Part shown: positions 8,938-38,246 of the stretch, piece by piece
Position numbering within the stretch: the first letter of the stretch is position 1
Layout: each line of letters starts with the position of its first letter
Virus record (IMG/VR): IMGVR_UViG_3300030616_000018
Source: an uncultured virus (IMG/VR IMGVR_UViG_3300030616_000018)
Taxonomy: Duplodnaviria; Heunggongvirae; Uroviricota; Caudoviricetes
Length of the DNA: 64,000 bases
Direction: 5' to 3' (one strand)
Program-made: the position numbers and the translations under genes
The notes under the pieces: model-generated
The model's database searches: none
What the model was told of the DNA's origin: nothing
The model's input: only the letters and a program-made list of their open reading frames with translations

Positions 8938-8984
8938 TTTATTTATTTGGTTGGTTGTTTAAATTGTTCTAATTATAAATACGA

Positions 8985-9431
8985 TTAACCAGGGGCTTGC
9001 TGACGCTTTCTACGAAGTTTGCTAAGGGCCCATCCACCTAAGAGAGCTCCACCAGCGGCTGCGGCCATTCCTGCAGGATTATCGTCCATACCCTGACGAA
9101 GACCTTTAGACATTGCTCCCGCTTTTTCTGAAGCATATTCACCAGCAGCACCAATTTTCTTACCTGCTGCGCTGAATCCTTTTTGGGCTGTACGTTCAAG
9201 AGATTTACCAAATCCTTCATCTCTAAATGCTTTCTCGGCACCTTCTCGACCACTTCTGGCACCCATCTTAACACCAGCAGCTCTAGCTTGAGTCATTTCT
9301 GCAGGACTATATCCACCACCAGCGCTAACCATTCCACGTTTAACTGAGTCTCTAGCGCCTCTATACCAATCGGCAGGATTATACCAAGCTTCGCGTAAGC
9401 CGTCACCAGCCCACCCAATTTGCCCCGACAA
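8985..9431 (-). CDS. Gly/Ala/basic protein segment, probably the -1 frameshift extension of 9440-9655
   Basis: TTG start buried in a hairpin with no RBS; frame is open back to the A7 run of the upstream gene. Confidence 0.6.
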   Translation of the reverse strand: MSGQIGWAGDGLREAWYNPADWYRGARDSVKRGMVSAGGGYSPAEMTQARAAGVKMGARSGREGAEKAFRDEGFGKSLERTAQKGFSAAGKKIGAAGEYASEKAGAMSKGLRQGMDDNPAGMAAAAGGALLGGWALSKLRRKRQQAPG

Positions 9432-9439
9432 AAGGTGGG

Positions 9440-9655
9440 CTACTCTTTTTTTCCTTCAGGTTCTCCAACAGCTTCCATCAAGAACTTTCGAGAAGCATCA
9501 AAATCCGCTTCACTGATAAGTCCTTCTACCTCTGTACCCGGTTCACCTGTCTTTGTCTCCACTCCTTCTTGAATAACATCAGCGCCATCCGGTTCTTCCA
9601 TGATGTTAGCCACGGACTCTTCGATAATCTTATTGACATCGTAACTCATATTCAC
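9440..9655 (-). CDS. acidic small protein ending at a slippery A AAA AAA site
   Basis: AGGAGG RBS; ends GGA AAA AAA GAG TAG followed by a hairpin. Confidence 0.65.
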   Translation of the reverse strand: MNMSYDVNKIIEESVANIMEEPDGADVIQEGVETKTGEPGTEVEGLISEADFDASRKFLMEAVGEPEGKKE

Positions 9656-9689
9656 TTCCTCCTAGTTTCATTTATATGAACCTTGGTTA

Positions 9690-10331
9690 TTAAGCAGCGG
9701 CAGTAGCAGCTTTTCCTCTTTGTTTAAATCTATTCATAGTTGCTTTAGCCTCTCGCTTCTGACCACGTTTAATAACATGATCTGTACCCATTTTAACAGA
9801 TTTATCCCATACACCTTTAACATTGGTCATGCCTGCAGCAATAGCGGACTTAATACGATTTACAGCATTTCCACCCATTTTCTTAGCACCGGCATATCCT
9901 TTCGTCATCTTAGCACCCAGAGCTTTAGCTCCATATTTCGCTCTTGCTGACTTCAGAAATGCTCCAGCCTTCTTCTTACCACTCTTGAAAGATTTACCAA
10001 GATCATCCATTCTATCCCTAAAAGATTTTTTACCACTGTATCCTCTTGGCACCTGATGTACTCCTTTAGCTTCAAGCATTAAATTCTCGTAAAAAGAAGC
10101 AGAGTAAGCCATGTAAGGAGCAAGTACTGTTGACAGATGTTCTTCAAACACTTCATCAACATTGTCAGATTCAAGCATTTCGATATATTTCTCGATTGCT
10201 TTTTCTACATATTCACCTTCATACATAGATGCATCAATTATAGCACCTTCGAGAACTTGATCTAACATAATTTCATCTTCGTTCTCAACAAACAAAATCA
10301 ATTCGGTATTATCTTTAAACATTTTAATCAT
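9690..10331 (-). CDS. acidic-N/basic-C protein, putative processed head protein
   Basis: D/E-rich first about 88 aa ending MLE, then K/A/G-rich. Confidence 0.6.
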   Translation of the reverse strand: MIKMFKDNTELILFVENEDEIMLDQVLEGAIIDASMYEGEYVEKAIEKYIEMLESDNVDEVFEEHLSTVLAPYMAYSASFYENLMLEAKGVHQVPRGYSGKKSFRDRMDDLGKSFKSGKKKAGAFLKSARAKYGAKALGAKMTKGYAGAKKMGGNAVNRIKSAIAAGMTNVKGVWDKSVKMGTDHVIKRGQKREAKATMNRFKQRGKAATAAA

Positions 10332-18849: not shown

Positions 18850-19902
18850 CTACTCCTTTAAAGATTCAAGAAAATCATTAAAATCATTAAAACCATACAA
18901 TACATCAAATGCAGCATCCGCACATTCTTCATCATACAGTATACCTCTGTTTTTATTTATTTCATCTAACGCTACCGCAACTCCAAGAGCAGGCCTATAT
19001 GGTCTATGTGTTGACATCGATTCGATTACATCACTAACAGCAATAATCTTGGATGAAAACAAAATGTCATCACCTTTTAATCCTTGTGGGTAACCAGACC
19101 CATTTATTCTCTCGTGATGTTGATGTACTATTTCAGAAACATCACAAGGTAACAGATCTTTAAATGGAATGTTTTTAATTATATCGTATCCTACATCTGA
19201 ATGGTCTTTAATCAAAGCAAACTCATTCTTACTCAATTTTGATGGTTTAGTCAAAATATCAGAAGGTATAGATATCTTACCAATATCATGCATTAAGCCA
19301 GCAATACGAACACAATCAACTCTATCTTCTTTTAATCCAAGAATCTTAGCCATTTCAACAGATAATTGTGTAACCCTTTCTTGATGTCCCGCAGTATAAG
19401 GATCTCTAGCTTCCGTTACTTTGGAGAGAGTTCTAATTGTTTGATCTAATACATTAATTACTTCTTGAGTTTTTTCTTTCACTTCTCTCTCTAAATTTAT
19501 CTTATAATTCTCTTGGTGTACTAAGAGTTGATATTTTTCAATACAATTATTGACGGTGTGCAGTAACAAATCAAAATTAACCGGTTTCATTAAATAATCA
19601 CAGGCACCATGTCTAAGAGAATCTACTATATCCTGCATTGAACCAGCACCAGAGAACATAACAACTTGGTGTTTTGGATAATCACTTTTAATAAGTGCCA
19701 AAAGTTGAACACCAGTCAATCTTGGCATATCAATATCAGTAAGCGTTACAATTGGCGTATATTGATTAAATAATCTTAAACCTTCCTCCCCATCGTTTGC
19801 TGTAATGACTTCGAACCCATTCCCCTCCAAGAAATGTTTTATTGGTTCTACTACCAACGGTTCATCATCAATCAAAAGAATCTTAAAGGGTTCATTCATC
19901 AC
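18850..19902 (-). CDS. response regulator with HD-GYP cyclic-dinucleotide phosphodiesterase domain (RpfG-like)
   Basis: REC: LLIDDE, TDIDMP, DYLMKP; HD-GYP: RDPYTAGHQERV, HDIGK, HHERINGSGYPQGL, RPYR. Confidence 0.92.
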   Translation of the reverse strand: MMNEPFKILLIDDEPLVVEPIKHFLEGNGFEVITANDGEEGLRLFNQYTPIVTLTDIDMPRLTGVQLLALIKSDYPKHQVVMFSGAGSMQDIVDSLRHGACDYLMKPVNFDLLLHTVNNCIEKYQLLVHQENYKINLEREVKEKTQEVINVLDQTIRTLSKVTEARDPYTAGHQERVTQLSVEMAKILGLKEDRVDCVRIAGLMHDIGKISIPSDILTKPSKLSKNEFALIKDHSDVGYDIIKNIPFKDLLPCDVSEIVHQHHERINGSGYPQGLKGDDILFSSKIIAVSDVIESMSTHRPYRPALGVAVALDEINKNRGILYDEECADAAFDVLYGFNDFNDFLESLKE

Positions 19903-20282: not shown

Positions 20283-20588
20283 CTAAATATTCAAACATGT
20301 TTCTAAATCCATTCTAACACTCGATGTCGGAGAAAGAGGATCAAACTTAATTGCAGTCGAATACTCCCTTTTATCCAGTTTAACACACCGATTACAAAGC
20401 CCCGTAAGGTTAATATCACCCGAAGGTAAACTTAAAATGATAGTTAATAATGATCCTTTTTCGATAAATTTATTAGTTCGACACATTACTCCACTCAAAC
20501 TAATATCTTTTGTTTTGCCAAGAATTTGGTCATTTATTTTTATATTTAATTCTTGACATGCTCGGTTAAAGAATCTTTGATCATTCAT
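20283..20588 (-). CDS. PilZ domain protein 3
   Basis: DQRFFNR, TKDISLSGV, AIKF; start MNDQR after AGAGGA. Confidence 0.75.
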   Translation of the reverse strand: MNDQRFFNRACQELNIKINDQILGKTKDISLSGVMCRTNKFIEKGSLLTIILSLPSGDINLTGLCNRCVKLDKREYSTAIKFDPLSPTSSVRMDLETCLNI

Positions 20589-20613
20589 TTTTCCTCTTTT
20601 GCACCTTAAAGAT

Positions 20614-20940
20614 TTAAGACTTGACAGCGTGTCCTTCTTCGACAAGAAGTTCATTAATGTTGGTTTCATCGACCACTAATATACCCAACACCCTACCGTA
20701 TTTACCTCTTTTATCTAACTTGGTTTGAATTGTGAATTTCTCCGGTAACAATTCTTTAAGACGATGTTTAGCGGCAAGCCCTTTCATCTTCTGAACATCA
20801 TCCCTTGTTCTTACTTCAGGAGCATTAATTCCGAATAAACGAATTCGACTCTTATAATGCATATCAAAACCTAAATCAATAATAACATCAACGGTATCAC
20901 CGTCAATTATTCTATCTAATTTACAACTATACTCATACAT
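20614..20940 (-). CDS. thermonuclease (SNase-like) family nuclease
   Basis: IIDGDTVDVIIDLGF, RIRLFGINAPE, GKYGRVLG, INELLVEEGHA. Confidence 0.85.
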   Translation of the reverse strand: MYEYSCKLDRIIDGDTVDVIIDLGFDMHYKSRIRLFGINAPEVRTRDDVQKMKGLAAKHRLKELLPEKFTIQTKLDKRGKYGRVLGILVVDETNINELLVEEGHAVKS

Positions 20941-20949
20941 CCTTTCACC

Positions 20950-21663
20950 TTATACGTGCGCAAATTTAAGTTTACTAGATTGTTTAGCAGCCTTTTTGGC
21001 AGCTTGTTTCTTTTCAACCATTCTGGCATTGCGTTGTAATTGAAGTGCGGCTCTATCCATTTTTCTTGATTTAGCCGCTTCACTTCCAGCTTTTTTAGCT
21101 ACAGAATAGCTTTTTGTACTTACTTTTGAATTAGAACTCCCATCTCTTTGTAACTTCTTATTTAGAAATGCGAGTCGAGTGGCAGCCTTCCCATGTCTTA
21201 TAGCTTTATTTGCATGAATTCCCGCCTGGTCTTTAATCTTTTCTGCATGCTTCCTAACTATCTTTCTTCCAAGTTTTGTGCCATATGCAATTCTTCTTAC
21301 ACCTTTAACAATAGCTCTACCTACTTTATTTTTACTCATACGATGTGTTAACTTTCGAATTTCACTATGCCGTTTTCCGCCCCAACGTCTTTCTTGATCT
21401 GTGCCCATATCTGCTGCATCTTTAAGATCTTTTTCGATTTGTACTTGTTCACTTCCTGAAAATTTATCAGATTTAGAAATACCTTCCCATACAATAGAAA
21501 ACTCTCTATCAAAATAATTATCTATTTCAGTGATATTATCAGTATCGAGAAAACGCAATACATCTTCAAGGAATGATTCACCATATTTATTTATACAACA
21601 CACTGTAATATCTTCAATGATTTGTTCATCAGTGTCAACAAACAAATTTGATATTGTAATCAT
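20950..21663 (-). CDS. tagged acidic-N/basic-C protein, paralog of 21677-22420
   Basis: shared KYG..FLE and SK.K.GRA.VKGVRR.AYGTKLGRK.VRK.A. Confidence 0.7.
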   Translation of the reverse strand: MITISNLFVDTDEQIIEDITVCCINKYGESFLEDVLRFLDTDNITEIDNYFDREFSIVWEGISKSDKFSGSEQVQIEKDLKDAADMGTDQERRWGGKRHSEIRKLTHRMSKNKVGRAIVKGVRRIAYGTKLGRKIVRKHAEKIKDQAGIHANKAIRHGKAATRLAFLNKKLQRDGSSNSKVSTKSYSVAKKAGSEAAKSRKMDRAALQLQRNARMVEKKQAAKKAAKQSSKLKFAHV

Positions 21664-21676
21664 ATCAATCTCCTAA

Positions 21677-22420
21677 TTATTTCATTGCAAGCAAGGGGAC
21701 ATTGCGTTTAGCTTGAGGTTTCATTCTTTTTGTGTTCCCTTGTTTAGCTTTTTGCTTTTTCTCAATAAAGTCAGCGTTTCTTCTTAACTGATGTGCTTGT
21801 CTTAATTTCTTCGATGCTTGATGAGCATATACTCCAGCGTTACGGCCATGTGCATCAGATGCCATATTATAGGACATAGCAGCACCAAGATTCCCAAGAT
21901 TCCCAAGGGTTGTGTTCTTTGAAATACCTTTTGCTCTTAATGCAGCTCTTAATGACTCTTTCCCATGCTGACCAGCTTTAGTCATTTCTGGTGATGCCAT
22001 CTTATCAACAACATCTGCATATTTCCTAACAACTTTTCTTCCTAATTTAGTTCCATATGCTACACGCCGTACTCCTTTAACAACCGCTCTACCAATTTTA
22101 CTTTTACTCAATTGATTCGTAATCTTTCTAATACCTCTTCTTTTACCAGTTAAAGACTCACTAGCTTTTCGTCCAGATTTAATTGAGTCTTTAACATTCT
22201 TTCTTACTTTCCTTTTATCCTCATCATCAAATTCTTCTACTTCAAATAAAGCATTATACTCTTTATCAAAATATTCTTCCATTTCTGTCATAATACCAGA
22301 TTCGAAGAAAGGAATAATGCTTTCGAGAAAACAATCGCCGTATTTATAAAAACAATGTATAGTAAGATCCTCTATTAATTGTTCATCAGGATCTATAAAT
22401 AACTCTGATATTGGAATCAT
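21677..22420 (-). CDS. tagged acidic-N/basic-C protein, paralog of 20950-21663
   Basis: MIPISELF tag; tandem paralog. Confidence 0.7.
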   Translation of the reverse strand: MIPISELFIDPDEQLIEDLTIHCFYKYGDCFLESIIPFFESGIMTEMEEYFDKEYNALFEVEEFDDEDKRKVRKNVKDSIKSGRKASESLTGKRRGIRKITNQLSKSKIGRAVVKGVRRVAYGTKLGRKVVRKYADVVDKMASPEMTKAGQHGKESLRAALRAKGISKNTTLGNLGNLGAAMSYNMASDAHGRNAGVYAHQASKKLRQAHQLRRNADFIEKKQKAKQGNTKRMKPQAKRNVPLLAMK

Positions 22421-22430
22421 AATAATATCC

Positions 22431-22769
22431 TTACTTTTTCTTCCTTGGAGTAACTACAAATATAGTTTTACCTTTATTATCTTTAAGCTTTTGTCTAATA
22501 TCAGCAGCAGTATCTTTGTAAGATTTAGCTTTTATACCTAGGTTGTTAGAATATTTTATTGCTCTTTTTCCACCACCTTGGAATTTCCCAATTTTCTTTG
22601 CACCATAGGAAAGTCTTTCAGCCCCCTTACCCATCTTTTCTCGAACTTTAGCCCAATCTTTCATTACACTCCGACCTAATTTAGAACGATAAGGCACCAT
22701 ACTTAATCCTCTAGTAATTGAAGTTCCAATTTTGAACTTTGATTCGAATAAGTAAGATATTGCAATCAT
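22431..22769 (-). CDS. basic protein with MIAISYLFE tag
   Basis: tag; SKLGR motif shared with the two neighbouring paralogs. Confidence 0.6.
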   Translation of the reverse strand: MIAISYLFESKFKIGTSITRGLSMVPYRSKLGRSVMKDWAKVREKMGKGAERLSYGAKKIGKFQGGGKRAIKYSNNLGIKAKSYKDTAADIRQKLKDNKGKTIFVVTPRKKK

Positions 22770-23176: not shown

Positions 23177-23424
23177 TTCTCTAATTTTGATAATAGTTCC
23201 ATTTTGCCCGAATCAGCGCTCTTTTGAAATCTTAATACAACAGTTTTACCAGATTTCGCTCTAAACTTTTTAGATCGAATAAGAGGCCTACCAGTATCTG
23301 GATCTTTCGCAGCTTCGGACTCTTTTGGTTTATCTTTCGGTTCATAATGTGTATAACCACCAGATTTTGTTTTCTTACCTGGTTCGAATTCCTGCTTTTC
23401 AAATAAATTACTTACGGGTAACAT
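23173..23424 (-). CDS. small basic protein with MLPVSNLFE tag
   Basis: tag family member. Confidence 0.6.
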   Translation of the reverse strand: MLPVSNLFEKQEFEPGKKTKSGGYTHYEPKDKPKESEAAKDPDTGRPLIRSKKFRAKSGKTVVLRFQKSADSGKMELLSKLEK

Positions 23425-23758
23425 AATTACCTTTTCCTTCTAAGAATTCTTCTAATAATAATTTATCTTCATCAAGTATACTTTCTTTTTTGAAACATAA
23501 TGCTGTGTGGTACACGCCACAATTAACATTTAATGTTCGTAAAGTAGTAGCTTCAATGAAAATACTTCTATCAGGTAGTTTTAATTCAATCTTATAATCT
23601 GTAATATCTTCAAGTATTTGGTTCACGGTCGCGTAAAGCCCACCCATACCTATATTGGTAGTTCGTCCACAAATTTGACCATTGATTATTATATCGATTG
23701 ATTTTTCTACCCGAACATGTCGGCGATTACCTAGAACCGCATTAGTAACTACTAGCAT
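23408..23758 (-). CDS. PilZ domain protein 4
   Basis: NRRHVR, TTNIGMGGL, ALCF. Confidence 0.75.
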   Translation of the reverse strand: MLVVTNAVLGNRRHVRVEKSIDIIINGQICGRTTNIGMGGLYATVNQILEDITDYKIELKLPDRSIFIEATTLRTLNVNCGVYHTALCFKKESILDEDKLLLEEFLEGKGNYVTRK

Positions 23759-24607: not shown

Positions 24608-24982
24608 TCAGCCATCAATTTCAAAATGGTCAATTTTTCTTTCTTCTTTCTCATTAATAAAATTATCAATCTTCTTTCGAACACCCATATCAATACTACT
24701 AAAATAAATGCCTACTTCATAATTATCTTGTTTAATTTTCTCACAACGAACGACAACTCCATCAAATATAACATCATCATCAGGAAGATTAAGGGTTAAT
24801 CTTAATCTAGTCATTTCACTTATAGGTTTAGTCATTGTACAGCTAGCACCAACACAACTCAAATCCTTTGTTTCCCCGTGAATATCGTGAGATGCATCTT
24901 CAGGAATTATCTTGAACTTAATTGGAGCTTTGACTCTTTTACTTCTTCGTCTTTCACGTATTATAACTTTTTCTTCAGTCAT
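24608..24982 (-). CDS. PilZ domain protein 5
   Basis: ERRRSKR, TKDLSCVGA, GVVVRC, YEVGIYF. Confidence 0.88.
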   Translation of the reverse strand: MTEEKVIIRERRRSKRVKAPIKFKIIPEDASHDIHGETKDLSCVGASCTMTKPISEMTRLRLTLNLPDDDVIFDGVVVRCEKIKQDNYEVGIYFSSIDMGVRKKIDNFINEKEERKIDHFEIDG

Positions 24983-27407: not shown

Positions 27408-28358
27408 ATGGTAGAAAAGAAACAACCAGCGGCTAAGGCAAAGAAAGACCAACCCCAGATTGAAGTAGGTAGCGAAACAACTGGATACTGGGATTATTAT
27501 TCTATTTTATTTCGTCTTCGCAGAACGATGCTAGGTACTTGTACCGAGGCATCAATAATGCAGGAACACGTTATTCAAAAGGCTCGCAAACAAATCAAAA
27601 AGGCTAATCGCCTTGGCGATCGTATTGTAAAGTCTATTGACAAGTTCAAAGGAGATGCTATCTCCGAAGACAAAGAAATTGAAGAGGTCAAGAAGATTAT
27701 TATGGCATTCGCAGAATTGACCGCGAAACCACTTAGTATGAATCTTCCGAACGATCTCAAATCCTTGCTCACCATGGCGAAGGAAGTCAAAAAAGATTAC
27801 GACGAACTCGTTGCAAAAGGTGAACAAGCAAAGTTCACAGTCTTCATGAAAGAACCGAAGAATGGTGATCCCAATACACTATGGCCGGTTATTAGTACCC
27901 ATATGATTTTAGGGAATCTCAAAGAGAATCTCAAAATCATTTGCAACAACGGAGACAAAACAATATTGTCTACTAAAGTCTCCATCGGTGAAACTATGGC
28001 GTTAGATGTCAAAGCTATCGAAGAGTTTATGACTCCCAACCTAGACATTATGCGCCATCCGGATGGTAAACCTCTTATTGAGGAACGACCCATATCGTTT
28101 AACCGTATGGGGAAGACCGAAACGGCAATTGCTGCTTCTGAACAGTTGCCTAAACTTGCCACATTCGGTTGTAAACTTCGTATCCGTAAAGGTAGCCCTA
28201 TTAATGAGACTGCCCTTAGGAAACTTTTTACTTACGGTAAAAACAATGGATTAGGAGCTAATCGTGGTGCTGGTAATTTCGGCTCCTATGATTACAAACT
28301 GGAGAAACTACCCAACTTCGTTGAAACTGTCGAAGGACACGAAGACGGGTGGAGATAG
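27408..28358 (+). CDS. stand-alone RAMP (Cas7/Csm3-like RRM-fold) protein, 316 aa
   Basis: start MVEKK after AAAGGAGA; N-terminal strand FRLRRTMLGT, ISTHMILGNLKE, ASEQLP...FGCKLRI, C-terminal G-rich loop GKNNGLGANRGAGNFGSY typical of RAMPs. Confidence 0.75.
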   Translation: MVEKKQPAAKAKKDQPQIEVGSETTGYWDYYSILFRLRRTMLGTCTEASIMQEHVIQKARKQIKKANRLGDRIVKSIDKFKGDAISEDKEIEEVKKIIMAFAELTAKPLSMNLPNDLKSLLTMAKEVKKDYDELVAKGEQAKFTVFMKEPKNGDPNTLWPVISTHMILGNLKENLKIICNNGDKTILSTKVSIGETMALDVKAIEEFMTPNLDIMRHPDGKPLIEERPISFNRMGKTETAIAASEQLPKLATFGCKLRIRKGSPINETALRKLFTYGKNNGLGANRGAGNFGSYDYKLEKLPNFVETVEGHEDGWR

Positions 28359-30089
28359 GCGCTATGAACTCATACGAATTAAGGCGTACTATTGGTCTGG
28401 TTCATTTCGCTTATGTGACGTGAAGGTGGCGTAAACTGACATGAAGTCTGATTTCGTACTGGTTCTGTATATTACCGTACTGTGTAATATTATCATGTAT
28501 AGTTGAGGTGTGATGTCTTAACGTACAATTGGCTGATATAATGTACTGATGATGTATTCCGAGATAAAGTAAACTTTCGGGTGTCATTATGTGCGACGAC
28601 ATACTCTTTTATGCTGTCACGTTATGGTCGCATGTTATACAATGCGATGCAGTAATGGTGTAGTTTTATGGCATGGAGTGAAGTTAAGTAAAGGTGATGT
28701 ATGATCTTATCCAGCATTGTGCCGTAGTGGTCAGGTGGCGTTATACGTCATAGACTAATGTGCGACACAGTAACGGTTATGTAATGTGTTGTCGACTTAC
28801 GATTCGTGGAGTTGTGTCAAGTCTTGGTTATATGGTCTGTCATCTATTCCTGACTGGCGTTGTAACAGCTTTGCTCGGTCTCGTTGCGTCCCGCTAATAA
28901 ATAAATAAAATAAAGTAAGGTGAGAATCCTTATTAGCGAATGTATTGGTATGATACAATTTTACCAAGTAGGCTTGAGTTGAGTTATGTACGATGATGGT
29001 CCCATCCCGTATTGTAGGTTTCCACTTTGTTTCGTCCTGGCAACATGGAGTTGTTTGATCTGCCATTATATGGAGTAGCGGTGGACTGAATTACGCTCAA
29101 CTTAGGCGTTGTAACAGCAAGGTGCAATGAAATTTACTATTGTGAAGTTCTGTATGGGTGAAATAGTATGAACCGTAGTTGTGGTGGGTTAAGCTATCAC
29201 AAAGCAGGGTTTGATGATGTAAAGTGGCGGTAAAAGTAAAGTCCAATCAACCTATGTAATGTGCAGTGTCCGGTAAACTGTGATTACATGAACTTTTGTT
29301 TGCTACGAGTTGAGTCAGATAAGCTCATGTAATTTATCGTATTGGTGAAGCGTTATCAACTACAATGCTATTTGGTGGAGGTCCAGTTTTGCCTTTATGT
29401 GGTAGAATTGTGTGGGCTGTTGTTTTGGTGACAATAAATAATATGACATAAAGTAAAGTGGGGAAGTCAACCCAACGTCATCAAAACAATTCCTTGGTAC
29501 AGTTGTATCAATTAGCCTGAAGTTTCATGTCGGTATTGTTCTGTCCATTAATGTTCAATATTGTAATGTTCAATATACTCAAGTATTGGTACAATGTCGT
29601 AAACTGGAGTGAATCGCAGTACCAGTGAACCGAACTCAAGCAATGTTTCGTTCTGGTGAACTGAAGTGTACTCACGTAACGTCGGGGTACTATGATATAA
29701 ATCAGAGTAAGATGTCGTTCTGGTTTGATACTGCAAAAAGCAAAATGCCCTGAGGCTTGATTCTGTTAAATAGAATTACGGTATAATATAATATCGTAGG
29801 ATAGCCTGAAACTTCATGTAGGTAATGTCATGTCTCATACCATGAGTTCATGTGCCGTTCCGGTAAGACATCCTAAAGTAGAATGTGATGATGTAAAGGC
29901 TGGGTGACGCAATATTGGCTGACGTAGATGTATAGGTCTAGCATTGTTGGCTCGAATATGGTGAAATAGAGTAATGGTTGGGTCGCGTTGGCTCGTGTGA
30001 AGTTTCTTGAGGTAACGGTGGACTACGGTCAACTGATGTAATGTCGTTCCGGTAAAGGTAAAACACCATATCGTATTGTGTAGTCCCAC

Positions 30090-30392
30090 CGGTAGCGTAT
30101 CACGCTGTGAGCTCCAGTAAGGGTTTAGTTAACCATAGTGAGTTTGGGTTGTGTGACGGTAACGTCCAATATCATCTGGTCCATCACCGTACTGGTGAGG
30201 TGGTTTGCGATTATGTATTATTATGTGATGCTTTGTTTTGGTGAAATGATTTATCATAAGTCATATTACCGTTTAGTGATGGCAATGTCCTATATCGCCT
30301 GATCTAGTATTGCACTGACTCGGTAGCGTATCACGCTGTGCGCTCCAGTAAGGGGTTTAGTTAACCATAGTGAGCTTGGATTGTGTGACGGT
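30090..30392 (+). repeat. two near-identical about 70-bp blocks inside the array (about 30090-30159 and 30321-30392)
   Basis: cggtagcgtatcacgctgtg(a/c)gctccagtaaggg(g)tttagttaaccatagtgag(t/c)ttgg(g/a)ttgtgtgacggt. Confidence 0.9.
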
Positions 30393-31893
30393 TTAATGAA
30401 GTACAGCACTGTTACATATCGTATTGGTGGGACTATGTTAAGTCAACCGACGTGTCATTATGGTATTGTACTGCCCAGTAGATCACTATGAACTTCCGTT
30501 TTGGTCCGGTAGACTATCATGTTGTAAAGTACTGGTATAACGAAGTACCCTATAATCGGATATGGTTATGTAGTGGCTATGTGTCATAGCATAACATATC
30601 ATTATGTAAAGCTATGGTTCGGTTATGTGCAACTTTGTTCGCTCAATTTCAGTGCAGTCGGGGTATCATAAACTCAAGTGTCCTGGTCTAGAGTAAAGCA
30701 TTGGTTATGTTGCGCTGGTAAACTGTTGTACTATTTTATCGGGTATCGTTCTGGTGGACTAATCTACCGAGCCGTATCGTGAAGTCACGGTGCTGTCAAT
30801 CACTATGAACTACTATAATGTGGAATACGGTGACGGTTGAATGCAATGGAGTTTCCTACCCTTACATTAAGTAATGGTCAGGTGAAACTTTGTATCATGT
30901 GATGATGCGATGTGAAGACTTTGTTGCGTCCGATGCAATAGTATTCAGTGGTATTCTGTAATGGTAATCTAGACTTGGCTAAAGTATTGTTTCATCATGG
31001 TCTAGGTATGCTGAGCTGAATTACGATGTCGTTGGATAAAGTAGTATGTAGTAAAGGTCTAGTCTACCCTACTGTTGTGGTGCGGTCAATCTGCGTAATG
31101 TAATATATTGTGCAGGTGAGGTGTGTTGTTCTACCTTGGAGTTAAGTGTAATGATGTCGCGGTATGGTGAATTAAAGTATGTCATTGTTCAGTGACGGTA
31201 TGGCGATGTGTCTTGTTATAAAGTACAGTAATACATCGTCAGGGTTCAACATTGCATCTTACAGTGATGTCCGGGTATGCTTCTGTTGTCATCATATCGT
31301 ACGATGACGTATGGGTATGCTGAATCAAAGTGTCGTTTACCTAAAGTACCGTTGGGGTAAGGTGTTTTCATGTTCCGTAGCATGGGTTGAAGTTGCGGTA
31401 TGGTTACATCAGTTATGATGCATTGAAGTTGCGTGGCGGTACGATAAACTGAAGTAAGCTGAGCTAAGGTCGGGGTATGCTGAATTCAAGTGAAATGATG
31501 TAAACTGATGGTACGATTCTGCTATGTGGCATAATATAATGTTTTGTGTAGGTCCAGTTGTATGGAGTTATATGCCGTTATGGTCTGATACGATGAATCA
31601 TGATATAATACCGTAAGGGTGATGTGAGATATCGTTCAATTCAGTACTGGCACGTATCGTTGGGTTCTGTCCACTAGAGTTATGTAATGGTGAAATTATG
31701 TCAGTCTAAGTGCATTGTTATAGTGTGCGCTTTTGTAAAGTAGAGGCAGGATAACGTAACCCGAAATACAGTATGGTTTCATACAGGTGATATAAAGTCA
31801 GCTAACGTTGTGTATAGTATCGTATTATGGTGGCAACGTTACATTCATTATTGTACTGTGGTGTTAGGGTGGAATTATGTGGGCTGAGGTTTC

Positions 31894-32061
31894 GTAGGGT
31901 TTCGTAGTGGTACGCTAAAGTTTACTATTGCCCATTCTCGTAAACTGATGGTAAAATTAGCTAACGTTGTATATACTGTAGGGTTTCGTAGTGGTACGCT
32001 AAAGTTTACTATTGCCCATTCTCGTAAACTAATGGTAAAATTAGCTAACGTTGTATATACT
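31894..32061 (+). repeat. 84-bp tandem duplication inside the array
   Basis: 31894-31977 and 31978-32061, one mismatch (gatggt/aatggt). Confidence 0.92.
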
Positions 32062-32242
32062 ATCGTACTATGGAACGGCATCATAAAGTTACGCCAGCTA
32101 ATGTGCAGTCGAGTCCTGGTTGGATTAAGTTGGGTGTAATATTGTCATGGTTCGATATAGCTTCATTGACTCGGGTTATGGCCTAGTTCAATTTACTCGG
32201 CTACCGTATTGCTAGGGTGAACTGTGATATCGCAGACTAAGC

Positions 32243-32291
32243 GTGGCTAGACAGTCTTTTATAGGTTGTCTAGCCACAACCTAATTTTTTT
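32243..32291 (+). terminator. hairpin terminator closing the array (likely bidirectional)
   Basis: GTGGCTAGACA...TGTCTAGCCAC then T-tract, between convergent units. Confidence 0.75.
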
Positions 32292-34213: not shown

Positions 34214-36352
34214 TTATGATGGTACCTTCCAGATTTCTAATCTAGCTCGACGAATTGATGCTGTATCGCCAAGATTACTACAACACCAATCAAGATCTAC
34301 TGTATGATTTCCAGCGGATAAGTTCTCATATTTAAACCCACTTGCAGGATGCCATTGATCACTACCTGCATCTTTAGGTTCCCACTGGTGTTCCATAATA
34401 GTGGTCGTATCATCAATTTGAACTTGCCCTCTAAAATCATTAGATCTATTGTTGTATTGCCATTCATAATACCAACTAATTCTATATTTACCACCAACTA
34501 GACCAGTAAGAGTCAATCTTACTTTTTGTTGGTAGGCATTATTGGTAGTCTGTTGCAATGTCTCTGATGATGTTTCAAACAATTCTTCAAATACACCATC
34601 TTGTCCATCGACACCGTCAGCACCATCTTGTCCATCTGCACCTGCAGGACCCGTATCACCTGGTTCCCCTTTTAATCCTGTGAAAGGACCAAAATCAAAC
34701 CATACACTTCCATCATACATTATGACGTGTTTTGACATGTCCCCATTGAGAGGAGCAGGTAGCGTTTGATTAGATCTATTATCATCTAAAACAAGAAAAT
34801 AATAAAGATCCGTTGAAGATGCTCCAGACGTTGTTTCAATCGACGTTATTTTTGCTTCATCTAAATCATCATATTCATCAACCTGAAAAGCTTCTCCTTG
34901 GGGACCTTGGGGACCAGTTGCGCCATCTGCACCATCCACACCATTAGCCCCATCAGCTCCGTCAACACCAGGAATACCTTTGATTCCCTGAAGTCTTTTA
35001 ATATTAAGAACTAGATTAGGTTGACATGTCACTACTGATGTATTTGCTCTCATTAATTGAACTGTGATATAATCTCCATTATTCAAATAATAAGGAAATG
35101 ATGCTTTTAAATCTTGTATCTCTGTCTGATAAAAATCCCCTGTTACTTCACTTGCAGGAATAGAAGTTGTGCCATTAACTTGTATTCTACCATATACAAG
35201 AGTCATAGTTGTTGCTACTAATGATTGGAAATAAAAATCTATATCATACCAACCATCTTCATAAACATATATTCTCTCAGTATTGGTATCATCATGTTTG
35301 ATAACTGTATCATCGGTTTCTGCTTCAGTTGTATCTAAAGTTACATCGCCCCAAGTCGTACCTATATTATAGGTTGTTGATCTACGAGCGGATACTAAAT
35401 TGATTAATGTTACATCTCCAGCAGGACCTTCAACACCTTTTATATTTCCTATTAATACCCATGACCCACTTTGTTTCTCATACACATCACTGGTATTAGT
35501 ATTTAGATAATAATCACCATTCTCTCCAGTTGCTCCCGCAGGAATACCTGCTCCATTGTACCAAACAGAACCTGAAGGACCTGGTAACCCTGTATCACCC
35601 TTTATTGAATCTACTTTATATACTTCTAAATCCGATTTAAGTATAGCAGACGGATCACCAGAAGATATTACTTGAACTGATATCCACTCATTAGCATTAA
35701 AATATTCAACTACTTCATTAGATAATTCATCTGTTATTCCACCTTGATTAACATTAGTTAATATATGTGAATTATCACATTCTGAAGCTGGTAAGAACAC
35801 TGAATCATTTTTATTTATTCTTGCGTTCAATGTACTATTCACATTAGTTGGTGGAGTACCATTAGGAGGTATGCTATACATAATATTATAGGCTACTCTA
35901 TAATACCCTGCCTCATTGAAATAAATCCTATCTTGATTTGCTACGCTATGACTTAATCTAGAAGGCTCAGTTTCTGAGTCCTTTATTGGATACACTATAT
36001 CTTGCCAGGTCGTAGGAAATGTAGTATATGTGTTCATTCGAACTCGACAATGAACCATAGCTGGTTGTCCAAATAATTCATACTTCTTATATGCGAGTAT
36101 ATTTGGATCCCATACATATGCTGCTGCTGTATCATTTGCAATATAGAGTTTGCCTGCTATACCCGTAGCCGGGAAACTAGATGATGAATTATAGAAGTAA
36201 CTATCTGTTATCTTTACATTACCTACACCATCACCAATCCATAAATCTTTAGTATCGAGGGAGACAGCAGGCTCCCCTCGTTGAAGGGAAGCAGCTTGAA
36301 CATTACTGTTCGCTCCTCGCTTTAACTTTATTAAATCAATTGTATTCGCCAT
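34214..36352 (-). CDS. collagen-like tail fibre/appendage protein
   Basis: IKLKRG...GEPAV.LDT..LWIGDG N-terminus (Mtd-N/hyaluronidase-like), Gly-X-Y repeats, C1q-like beta domains. Confidence 0.8.
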   Translation of the reverse strand: MANTIDLIKLKRGANSNVQAASLQRGEPAVSLDTKDLWIGDGVGNVKITDSYFYNSSSSFPATGIAGKLYIANDTAAAYVWDPNILAYKKYELFGQPAMVHCRVRMNTYTTFPTTWQDIVYPIKDSETEPSRLSHSVANQDRIYFNEAGYYRVAYNIMYSIPPNGTPPTNVNSTLNARINKNDSVFLPASECDNSHILTNVNQGGITDELSNEVVEYFNANEWISVQVISSGDPSAILKSDLEVYKVDSIKGDTGLPGPSGSVWYNGAGIPAGATGENGDYYLNTNTSDVYEKQSGSWVLIGNIKGVEGPAGDVTLINLVSARRSTTYNIGTTWGDVTLDTTEAETDDTVIKHDDTNTERIYVYEDGWYDIDFYFQSLVATTMTLVYGRIQVNGTTSIPASEVTGDFYQTEIQDLKASFPYYLNNGDYITVQLMRANTSVVTCQPNLVLNIKRLQGIKGIPGVDGADGANGVDGADGATGPQGPQGEAFQVDEYDDLDEAKITSIETTSGASSTDLYYFLVLDDNRSNQTLPAPLNGDMSKHVIMYDGSVWFDFGPFTGLKGEPGDTGPAGADGQDGADGVDGQDGVFEELFETSSETLQQTTNNAYQQKVRLTLTGLVGGKYRISWYYEWQYNNRSNDFRGQVQIDDTTTIMEHQWEPKDAGSDQWHPASGFKYENLSAGNHTVDLDWCCSNLGDTASIRRARLEIWKVPS

Positions 36353-37346: not shown

Positions 37347-38246
37347 TTATAGTTCTCCACCATCAATAACGATAGCATGATATTCCATATTACCACTGGT
37401 ACTGTTATAGGTAATCAATTTACCATCACCAAGAGCACCTTCATCAATAGTCTTCGTACCCAATTTAGTGTCATGCGCCGATAATTGTAGTTCAATCTTG
37501 TTAGCAGACCAACCAACATCAGTATCCCCTAATCCACTAGAATCATCGATAACAGCAGATTGAGCACGAGCATCAGTGAAATACAAATTTGTTACTTCAG
37601 AAACATGAGAAGTATTGAGAGTTACAGTAGGTCCAGTTTGCCCGTTAACATTAACAATACCATCAACTGCCGTTAACATTTCTGTCCATGCAGATCCGGT
37701 ATAAATCCAGCTTATATTGGTACCTGTAACAATAGCAACATCTCCAGCTTGAACTGTGAGCGCATCACGTGCAGCATTGTCTGCAACAACACTAACAGAA
37801 GTAATCGCTAAATCGGGAAGATAAGAACTTGGTATTTTACTACCTGAATCTAATGGTGCAACACCATCAACTTGCCCTCTCCAGGTTCCTGAAACTCGAG
37901 CGTCAATAGCAGCATCTAACCCCGTAATATCCCCAGGATCAATATTGCCTGAACCACTTGTAACTAACACATATGCTCCGGCTTTCCAAGCATAGAGAGT
38001 AGTTTCATTACTCTCATTCTCATCAGTAACAACCATATACAATTTGTTTACTTCACCTGTTCCTGGTAAGCTTGCATAATCAGCAGATACTACAATATCA
38101 GAAATTTTAATTTTCCCAGTACCATCCCCTACCCAAAGCGATCTAGTATCCATTCCTATCGCGGGCTCGCCTCTTTCAAGAGAAGCAGCATCTACTGCGG
38201 ATTGATTACCTCTTTTTAACTTAATAGTGTCTAATAATACAGTCAT
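37347..38246 (-). CDS. tail fibre/appendage protein, N-terminus paralogous to 34214-36352
   Basis: IKLKRG...ASLERGEPAIGMDTRSLWVGDG, GVAPLDSGSKIP, VNGQTG, NLYFTDARA, C-terminal IDGG. Confidence 0.75.
   Translation of the reverse strand: MTVLLDTIKLKRGNQSAVDAASLERGEPAIGMDTRSLWVGDGTGKIKISDIVVSADYASLPGTGEVNKLYMVVTDENESNETTLYAWKAGAYVLVTSGSGNIDPGDITGLDAAIDARVSGTWRGQVDGVAPLDSGSKIPSSYLPDLAITSVSVVADNAARDALTVQAGDVAIVTGTNISWIYTGSAWTEMLTAVDGIVNVNGQTGPTVTLNTSHVSEVTNLYFTDARAQSAVIDDSSGLGDTDVGWSANKIELQLSAHDTKLGTKTIDEGALGDGKLITYNSTSGNMEYHAIVIDGGEL

Follow-up and report, generated by a model that had tools for sequence, protein, structure and literature searches.

The locus described here is, at a probability that we put at roughly 80%, a VIPR (Viral Interference Programmable Repeat) system of a large marine-sediment phage, made of one vipr gene and a same-strand 'staggered' array of 3.9 kb with some 90-100 short vrRNA units. 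The five-base rhythm marks a very large guide-RNA array of VIPR, a phage system related to CRISPR, and therefore the array is a new example within a known kind rather than something new in kind, the published types having been compared by their text descriptions. It is notable for its size, for having no accessory gene and for its conserved guides. Within the window (the whole stretch of 64,000 nucleotides that was analyzed) the main features of the locus are:

27408..28358, + strand: vipr-like gene of 316 aa coding for a RAMP / Cas7-like protein with a helical insertion of ~85 residues
28361..32242, + strand: staggered vrRNA-like array of ~750 pentamers N1-N2-N3-R-Y, forming 119 in-phase runs (at least 6 pentamers in 86 of these)
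32243..32291, + strand: terminator-like hairpin (arms 32243-32253 and 32267-32277, then a T run) directly after the last pentamers

The array span is non-coding (28361-32242 holds no ORF longer than 89 aa) and its + strand has more G than C and more T than A. We compared the array with itself at different lags. Lags 5, 10, 31 and 36 gave identities of 0.369, 0.336, 0.343 and 0.366, respectively, and other lags ~0.22-0.28. The initial annotation had described a pentamer periodicity, and this proved significant against 1000 dinucleotide-preserving shuffles (mean 0.267), with z values of 14.5 at lag 5, 14.1 at lag 36 and 12.3 at lag 41; at each of the five lags tested, none of the 1000 shuffles reached the observed identity. 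Measured over 500-nt intervals, the lag-5 excess was at least 0.108 within the array and at most 0.055 across the rest of the window, and no second array was seen in the remaining 73 kb of the phage record. Tandem Repeats Finder returned only one 84-nt duplication and two trivial 10-mers and thus missed the period-5 pattern, as had been anticipated for tandem-repeat finding. The segmentation into pentamers was obtained with a 5-state cyclic HMM trained on the array region. Position 4 was G in 60% and A in 22% of the cases, position 5 was T in 88% and C in 11%, and positions 1-3 carried just 0.03-0.09 bit apiece. Position 3 was G in 21% of the pentamers. Among 744 pentamer ends, 737 were a pyrimidine, 590 (79%) were RY and 375 (50%) were GT. 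The HMM also registered 103 insertions of one base (75 of them the additional G in 'GGT') and 15 deletions of one base.

Specifically, three places inside the array illustrate its units:

28629..28777, + strand: four units (31, 36, 36 and 46 nt) as examples, with NNN-GGT at the end of each (exact re-parse)
30122..30160, + strand: highly conserved unit, 95% identical to the related locus L011 and 94% to L010 (blastn)
31894..32061, + strand: 84-nt tandem duplication of two units, 41 + 43 nt (Tandem Repeats Finder; unit spacing from the HMM)

The first of them had been parsed by hand in the initial annotation, and the parse was exact to the base: the four unit lengths, the ends of the 25 pentamers (12 GT, 9 AT, 2 AC, 1 GC and 1 CT) and the closing hexamers aatggt, aaaggt, agtggt and aacggt were all recovered. 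Along the array there is a +1 step at NNN-GGT, spaced at 5n+1 nt, mostly 36 or 41 nt. Between successive GG steps there were 74 intervals, 49 of them otherwise free of slips and the other 25 with extra slips. The lengths of the slip-free intervals were 31 (4 cases), 36 (18), 41 (13), 46 (6), 51 (3), 56 (2), 71 (1), 1 (1) and 6 (1) nt, so the unit length is 5n+1, which is the formerly proposed 5n+6 under another way of counting. The pentamer before GGT ended with G in 83% and T in 95% of the cases, in agreement with the earlier observation that a GT-ending pentamer precedes the closing hexamer. For the extra base at the step, a complete GGY motif once per unit is the better reading. Units abut with the +1 step and there are no 3' tails between them. 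The conserved unit at 30122..30160 has a second copy at ~30351-30392, and both copies match one place in L010 and likewise one in L011 (blastn). The 84-nt duplication is single-copy in run X3, where the contig joint skips 84 nt (31947 to 32032), and a related contig in run X5 has indels of 5, 10, 36 and 41 nt with respect to the window array; the evolution is modular. As for the folding of 300-nt stretches of the array, one was no better than shuffles (z -0.30) and another was better (z -3.07).

Between the vipr-like gene and the array, the + strand had no call of a terminator-like site; on the same strand, one was called at 32262-32283 plus a T-rich tail. The promoter scan stayed at chance level (20 sites vs 19.6 expected), and neither Rfam (gathering thresholds) nor a tRNA scan had a hit in the window. 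The vipr-like protein fell into no family of Pfam or PHROGs and had only chance-level matches in a sequence-profile search of the PDB (E of at least 0.28). In the fold comparison, every top match was a Cas7 subunit of type III or type VII. Among 50,697 phage records, there was no match to the locus (megablast) or to the protein (tblastn).

Profile comparisons support, transitively, a homology of the window protein to the experimentally characterized Vipr of Escherichia phage SUSP1. The SUSP1 vipr gene was picked by inference from the accession order of the paper and the residue numbers D177, W178 and R179. Because the direct comparison of the window family with the SUSP1-type family (hhalign, probability 5% and 11%) aligned the G-loop alone, the homology rests on one intermediate family: the window-family alignment A1 matched the intermediate A3 at 100% (E 5e-44), and A3 matched the SUSP1-type A2 at 95.8% (E 8e-9 over 175 columns). 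In SUSP1 Vipr, D177 is described as reading G1, W178 as stacking on G2 and R179 as holding Y3 (10.64898/2026.04.26.720927). These three residues align to A284, N285 and R286 of the window protein, in the sole aligned segment. The R179 position is invariant across A1, and pentamer position 5 is a pyrimidine in 99% of the cases. At the W178 position, 20 of the 24 sequences of A1 have W; in 32 of 33 arrays, 53-95% of the pentamers have G at position 4, the remaining array (L043) having 0.28. The D177 position is never D in A1 and pentamer position 3 is unconserved. As far as these alignments tell, the reduced scaffold matches the changes in the G-loop of the protein.

The pairing of gene and array extends to the relatives. 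A period-5 array was found on the gene's strand in all five non-self viral loci. Among the 43 related loci with at least 500 nt downstream of the gene, 39 had the gene-array pair, GT-rich on the gene's strand, under a strict filter, and the other 4 had weaker or shorter period-5 signals. At every locus the strand asymmetry follows the strand of the gene, with GT far above AC, and the grammar of the array is retained across proteins that are 36-53% identical. The spacing of the GG steps is 21, 26 or 31 nt in some relatives and 31-46 nt in others, always 5n+1, and the logo pooled over 409 boundaries reads G-Y NNN G-Y NNN GG-Y. There was no conserved neighbor gene in 59 loci; apart from vipr, none was common to more than 6 of them, and a gene cluster present in 30 loci is an antisense shadow ORF within vipr. 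We consider it very improbable that the array acts as a decoy or sponge, its RNAs soaking up or redirecting the Vipr of rival phages instead of guiding the Vipr of this phage. There is a precedent in satellite-borne solo vrRNAs, which are described as redirecting a rival's VIPR (10.64898/2026.10.15.759431), but the array is tied to its own same-strand vipr gene in those 39 loci and its scaffold tracks the G-loop of the linked protein.

The arrays of the window, L010 and L011 are colinear, with patches that are 80-95% identical; the gene is 70-71% identical in DNA, and the Vipr proteins of the phages with colinear conserved guides are 77-79% identical. In stretches selected by BLAST (1213 and 1876 of the 3882 positions, aligned to L010 and L011), the identity was 88.8% and 89.7% at positions 1+2, 80-81% at position 3 and 77-78% at the scaffold positions 4+5. 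Fisher tests of positions 1+2 gave p values of 1.8e-3 and 6.9e-5 against position 3, and of 3.8e-6 and 1.8e-11 against positions 4+5. At the level of aligned sequence, purifying selection on N1N2 is shown. Of the three N, the first two would seem to carry the information, the third one being intermediate; a gapped reading of variable positions, as the initial annotation had proposed, is the logic published for the vrRNAs of VIPR (10.64898/2026.04.26.720920). The initial annotation had suggested an information-bearing array with a fixed scaffold and not a decayed satellite, and this is borne out by the coupling to a Vipr-like RAMP gene, by variable positions 1-2 conserved above the scaffold in orthologous arrays and by the use of these positions like codon positions 1-2 (see below). 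That the repeats are a DNA-level element (curved DNA, or a signal for packaging, replication or recombination) or else a neutral microsatellite in decay is hardly credible to us. Five bases do equal half a helical turn, but this reading does not fit a strand asymmetry that follows the gene, variable positions conserved above the scaffold, a grammar kept across such divergent proteins or register shifts that are always +1 at GGY.

The use of N1N2 in 754 pentamers followed that of sense codon positions 1,2 in the 26 long ORFs of the window with r=0.87, against r=0.07-0.60 for the five other frames. Codon positions (1,2) in sense were also the best frame in 8 of the 11 relatives with enough codons, one of these 8 (L003) being weak in every frame (r=0.15). 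The three exceptions were L007 and L034, best in antisense (2,3), and L010, which was tied. Alternatively, contact preferences between the protein and the RNA could explain the codon-like composition. A direct copying of codons into the triplets was rejected, since stop triplets, though depleted, do occur (TAA+TAG+TGA 19 vs 37.8 expected).

We regard as unlikely a variant in which the ribonucleoprotein targets RNA and not DNA. Among solved structures, the nearest folds are those of RNA-targeting backbones (Csm3, Cas7-11 and type VII Cas7), and for this reason the filament might bind or cut transcripts. However, N1N2 is used like the sense codons (r=0.87) and unlike the antisense frames (r=0.07-0.56), and most guides thus resemble mRNA rather than its complement. 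An acidic residue after strand 1 is catalytic in Csm3. Mapped by eye, its place here falls in the TEAS segment and is not conserved, with E, D, Q or K. Besides, the VIPR relative that has been tested is described as binding double-stranded DNA (10.64898/2026.04.26.720920).

We searched for targets of 86 guides in 0.55 Mb (the own phage plus related contigs), scanning six decoding rules (NN+0, NN+1, NN+2, NNN+0, NNN+1 and N2N3+1), and the mismatches of the best hits were no different from those of shuffled guides. Perfect matches under NN+1 in the same 0.55 Mb were found for 4 of the 86 guides vs 10 of 430 shuffles. Within these 0.55 Mb and six rules, targeting of self or relatives had no support. 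The putative noncontiguous recognition of DNA (NN read, one base skipped) is backed indirectly by N1N2 being conserved above the scaffold and used like codon positions (1,2). The 5-9 repeats of a unit amount to 10-18 informative bases, little for specificity.

If the VIPR reading is followed by homology with the tested SUSP1 system, a common transcript of gene and array would run as far as the hairpin (32243-32291), and Vipr protomers would polymerize on the RNA, one per 5-nt repeat. They would hold the scaffold R-Y, which corresponds to G2 and Y3 in the canonical GGY, and present the bases after it. By the same homology, N1N2 of each repeat would pair with double-stranded DNA and every third target base would be skipped, so that a 36-nt unit would read ~20 bp in register with the codons, and a gene carried by a competing element would be silenced. 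The anatomy of the array suggests that the single GGY per unit, with its one-base register shift, would end one filament and start the next, and that the GGY step would set guide lengths in 5-nt increments. More tentatively, the clade might be a distinct VIPR type, in which an insertion-bearing Vipr would work without an accessory protein on a minimal G-Y scaffold, the +1 GGY step both ending the filament and processing the guides. Since the guides are colinear, conserved and sense-biased in codon register, the ~90 of them could form a hard-wired multiplexed silencing program against conserved genes of the host or of a long-standing rival, and not a fast-turning arsenal. The locus lies at the other end of the VIPR range, with a 3.9-kb array of ~90-100 tail-less guides and a one-base register shift as sole punctuation. 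As a natural experiment, it could tell how the length of a filament and the borders of a guide are fixed and what minimum of informative bases is enough, and it bears on VIPR guides as stable, conserved repertoires. Here a reading of the raw sequence recovered a putative RNA-guided system that repeat finders overlooked.

A classical CRISPR array (25-40 nt direct repeats plus spacers) was discarded: Tandem Repeats Finder gave no such repeat, there were no cas genes, and units are conserved and colinear between relatives. Cas families in Pfam had no match among the 15 neighboring ORFs of the window that were scanned, those in Pfam or PHROGs had none to the vipr-like gene or the five flanking ORFs, and no adaptation genes were seen near the array. 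The backbones of type III and type VII CRISPR-Cas (Csm3, Cas7) take a 6-nt step on arbitrary spacers, whereas the window has a 5-nt step and a sequence-specific scaffold.

VIPR was described in 2026 as having one Vipr protomer per 5-nt repeat and variable bases that read double-stranded DNA in a gapped code; the published set comprises 667 systems (10.64898/2026.04.26.720920). In the published descriptions, VIPR are proposed as ancestors of CRISPR backbones, the tested examples have four guides with canonical GGY/NN repeats, and the accessory vap gene is typical, not universal. Type II (SUSP1 and a Pseudomonas fulva prophage, with Vipr, Vap1 and vrRNAs) has in common with the window a phage-borne RAMP gene adjoining tandem repeats of 5 nt, in which variable bases are combined with a fixed purine-pyrimidine scaffold, and the W-R motif of the G-loop is common to both families. 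The differences are as follows. The protein has 316 aa with the helical insertion here vs 195 aa in type II; the scaffold keeps only G2 and Y3 of GGY, that is YNNNG, instead of GGY/NN; units abut, whereas type II has a conserved 3' tail or pseudoknot; there are 5-9 repeats per unit vs 9-16, and ~90-100 units vs 4 vrRNAs; and the window locus (59 loci compared) has no vap gene, unlike the tested type II with vap1. We rejected membership in type II (SUSP1-like) on the missing tail, the size of the protein (316 aa vs ~190 aa), the lack of vap and the 21% of G at position 3. Guides are conserved between relatives here, whereas the VIPR paper describes them as hypervariable (10.64898/2026.04.26.720920).

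WGT/NN-type motifs are described in VIPR-like arrays (10.64898/2026.10.21.760802). As reported there, the non-canonical arrays (WGT/NN, TGH/NN and others, detected by entropy periodicity) have in common with the window the 5-nt period, a degenerate first scaffold base and an adjoining Vipr-like fold; their clusters repeat ~10 times, whereas the window array has ~750 pentamers with internal punctuation. The VIPR trait of tandem 5-nt repeats adjoining a vipr gene is present in the window, with the scaffold reduced to G-Y, a published YNNNG variant. Both YNNNG repeats and staggered arrays are described among the VIPR types (10.64898/2026.04.26.720920), and YNNNG, listed with NNNGG and NNNNG repeats, is NNN-G-Y with the pentamer begun at a different base. 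In the staggered arrays, vrRNAs overlap by 1 nt, the end of one being the start of the next (10.64898/2026.04.26.720920, fig. S18). By the text of that legend, the 5n+1 spacing found here fits the 1-nt overlap of the published 'staggered arrays with overlapping vrRNAs'.

The plus strand of the 28361-32242 region is rich in G and T (T 1296, A 1013, G 985, C 588), and its longest ORF has 89 aa at most. The initial annotation had read it as a concealed grammar of pentamers ending in a purine and a pyrimidine, with a one-base step at GGT. Its hand parse of 28629-28777 was exact when repeated, and the observation is real. Self-identity was maximal at lags 5 (0.369) and 10 (0.336), with further peaks at 31, 36 and 41 that indicate a one-base shift building up every ~30-40 nt, and none of 1000 dinucleotide-preserving shuffles attained the observed identity at any of five lags tested (lag 5, z 14.5; lag 36, z 14.1). 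We have segmented the array with a cyclic HMM of five states that allows slips, which gave the consensus N-N-N-[G 60%, A 22%]-[T 88%, C 11%]. The model called 15 deletions and 103 insertions of a single base, 75 of which supply the additional G in GGT; among 744 pentamer ends, 737 were pyrimidines, 590 were RY and 375 GT. Slip-free intervals between GG steps (49 of 74) measured 31, 36 (18 times), 41 (13 times), 46, 51, 56 and 71 nt, two very short ones of 1 and 6 nt being also counted. As had been claimed, the pattern escapes a tandem-repeat finder: Tandem Repeats Finder returned an 84-nt duplication only.

AT-rich non-periodic breaks appear within the array at ~28890-28925, 29430-29460 and 29735-29790. 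The last contains TTGATT and TATAAT motifs separated by ~19 nt, a pair detected by eye and absent from the calls of the promoter scan, that might be an internal promoter. The region 30700-30999 (+) folds better than shuffles (z -3.07, 0/200), and 28629-28928 no better than them (z -0.30).

The array begins three bases past the stop codon of an ORF on the same strand.

Features of the locus
27408-28358, +, vipr-like ORF of 316 aa, same strand as the array
28361-32242, +, pentamer array
32243-32291, terminator-like hairpin and T run at the array's end

The 316-aa protein matched no family in Pfam or PHROG. Its own family comprises 115 clusters or more, all of them lacking a Pfam domain, and wherever a source gives a name it is "hypothetical protein"; a 306-kb contig carries one of the cluster members. 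A profile-based search of 1.84 billion representatives gave 933 matches with E<=1e-3, 56 of them with E<=1e-30, shorter relatives of ~200-240 aa among them, and a glycine-rich loop (G-loop), GKNNGLGxxRGxG, is invariant in the family alignment. The neighbouring genes are a tailed-phage set, with tail-fibre-like proteins, an endolysin-like GH108 protein and others. An Mtd_N domain is found in the tail-fibre-like proteins at 34214-36352 and 37347-38246 (-); in the longer (34214-36352) it is accompanied by collagen repeats and a BclA_C match below threshold. A receiver and HD-GYP-type (HD_5) protein and two PilZ-domain proteins are encoded at 18850-19902, 20283-20669 and 24608-24982 (all -), suggesting that the phage tampers with host c-di-GMP signalling; a third small ORF, at 23408-23758, resembles them by eye, with no Pfam match. 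The adjacent ORFs 20950-21663, 21677-22420 and 22431-22769 (-) look like paralogues, since their translations share similar N-termini and lysine-/arginine-rich tails.

We have examined homologues of the vipr-like gene in viral (6 loci) and metagenome (55 loci) contigs, partly from overlapping collections, so that not all loci are independent. A period-5 array was present on the gene's strand in all five non-self viral loci. Of 59 loci, 43 extended at least 500 nt beyond the gene, and 39 of these carried an array by a strict filter, the other four giving weaker or shorter signals. Arrays were downstream in 41 loci, upstream in 7 and on both sides in 5 (upstream or flanking, for example, in L017, L019, L020, L022, L014, L058 and L023). 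The upstream placement recalls SUSP1, the tested type II example of VIPR, which has one vrRNA placed upstream. No other gene was conserved beside the vipr-like gene across the 59 loci. All arrays shared one grammar: position 4 was G in 53-95% of pentamers for 32 of 33 (0.28 in L043), position 5 was a pyrimidine, position 3 was unconserved and GG steps were 5n+1 apart; some clades favoured units of 26/31 nt, and the window's clade units of 36/41 nt. The L043 array (8951-10300), with A at position 4 in 54% and G in 28% and just two GG-type steps called, may be a further scaffold variant or poorly segmented. Over 409 pooled boundaries from 12 relatives, the first pentamer past the GGY step was A-rich (54%, 45% and 41% A at the variable positions) and frequently AAAGT; it may act as a short, conserved handle instead of belonging to the guide.

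According to the structure paper (10.64898/2026.04.26.720927), one Vipr protomer binds each repeat: H17 and D177 read G1, R138 and W178 read G2, and R179 reads Y3 together with residues near it. The SUSP1 vipr gene was picked by accession order and the residue numbers of that paper. Direct profile comparison aligned the G-loop alone (probability 5% against the single SUSP1 sequence, 11% against 21 SUSP1-type proteins). An alignment of 20 shorter relatives matched the window family (probability 100%, E 5e-44, 205 columns), which has an insertion of ~85 residues, and also the SUSP1-type family (95.8%, E 8e-9, 175 columns). In the G-loop alignment, the window protein has A284, N285 and R286 where SUSP1 has D177, W178 and R179. 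This arginine does not vary across the window family; tryptophan occupies the W178 position in 20 of 24 sequences, its place being taken by N in the three from the window's clade and by H in one; no sequence has D at the D177 position. These changes parallel the array, where Y is nearly fixed, G2 mostly retained and G1 lost. In the window's clade (window, L008, L010, L011) N replaces the tryptophan that stacks on G2 in SUSP1 Vipr, and position-4 G is 53-60%, versus mostly 64-95% in W-bearing relatives (exceptions L046, 52%, and L043, 28%); two more N-bearing loci, L050 and L060, have 70%.

The window's array was compared with those of L010 and L011, whose proteins share 79% and 77% identity with the window protein. 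Their arrays are colinear with the window's at 80-95% identity in patches, the gene DNA being 70-71% identical. Identities by pentamer position were computed over the stretches that align (1213 and 1876 positions, respectively, out of 3882) and the differences assessed by Fisher tests.

Identity to the window array by pentamer position (L010, L011)
Position 1: 0.886, 0.885
Position 2: 0.889, 0.909
Position 3: 0.796, 0.808
Position 4: 0.701, 0.716
Position 5: 0.860, 0.825

The two bases following the pyrimidine are thus the most constrained, as expected of a guide code; a repeat made of scaffold only would show the reverse. The initial annotation was correct in taking the array as information-bearing. 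Usage of this dinucleotide over 754 pentamers resembled that of codon positions 1,2, read in sense, in the window's long ORFs (r=0.87, KL 0.059 bit), the other five frames fitting far worse. The same frame was best in 8 of 11 relatives (exceptions L007, L034 and L010), counting L003, which fits every frame poorly (r=0.15). This gives indirect support to a skip at the wobble base and suggests that most guides have mRNA sense, a point in favour of DNA targets and against RNA ones. A search with 86 guides under six decoding rules in 0.55 Mb (137 kb of the window's phage plus related contigs) gave no excess over shuffled guides. DNA contigs from runs labelled as marine sediment carry the locus unchanged, and no RNA run contained it. 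The 84-nt duplication is missing a copy in one run and a diverged relative contig has indels of 5, 10, 36 and 41 nt, differences consistent with evolution in steps of entire pentamers and entire units.

VIPR was described in a 2026 preprint (10.64898/2026.04.26.720920) as a phage-borne RAMP protein, Vipr, with vrRNAs of tandem GGY/NN pentamers that recognise double-stranded DNA with a one-base skip. The text and legends give seven types, alternative repeats NNNGG, YNNNG and NNNNG, and "staggered arrays" with vrRNAs from positions with 1-nt overlap. YNNNG as written there is the window's NNN-G-Y with a different start, and the 5n+1 spacing agrees with the legend text on staggered arrays. A language-model paper (10.64898/2026.10.21.760802) reports recovery of VIPR arrays and non-canonical WGT/NN-type motifs adjoining Vipr-like folds. 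The locus is most likely an additional VIPR-class member, of a kind of system already published, distinguished by a very large, tail-less, staggered array with a reduced scaffold, an insertion-bearing Vipr, the absence of an accessory gene and guides conserved between relatives.
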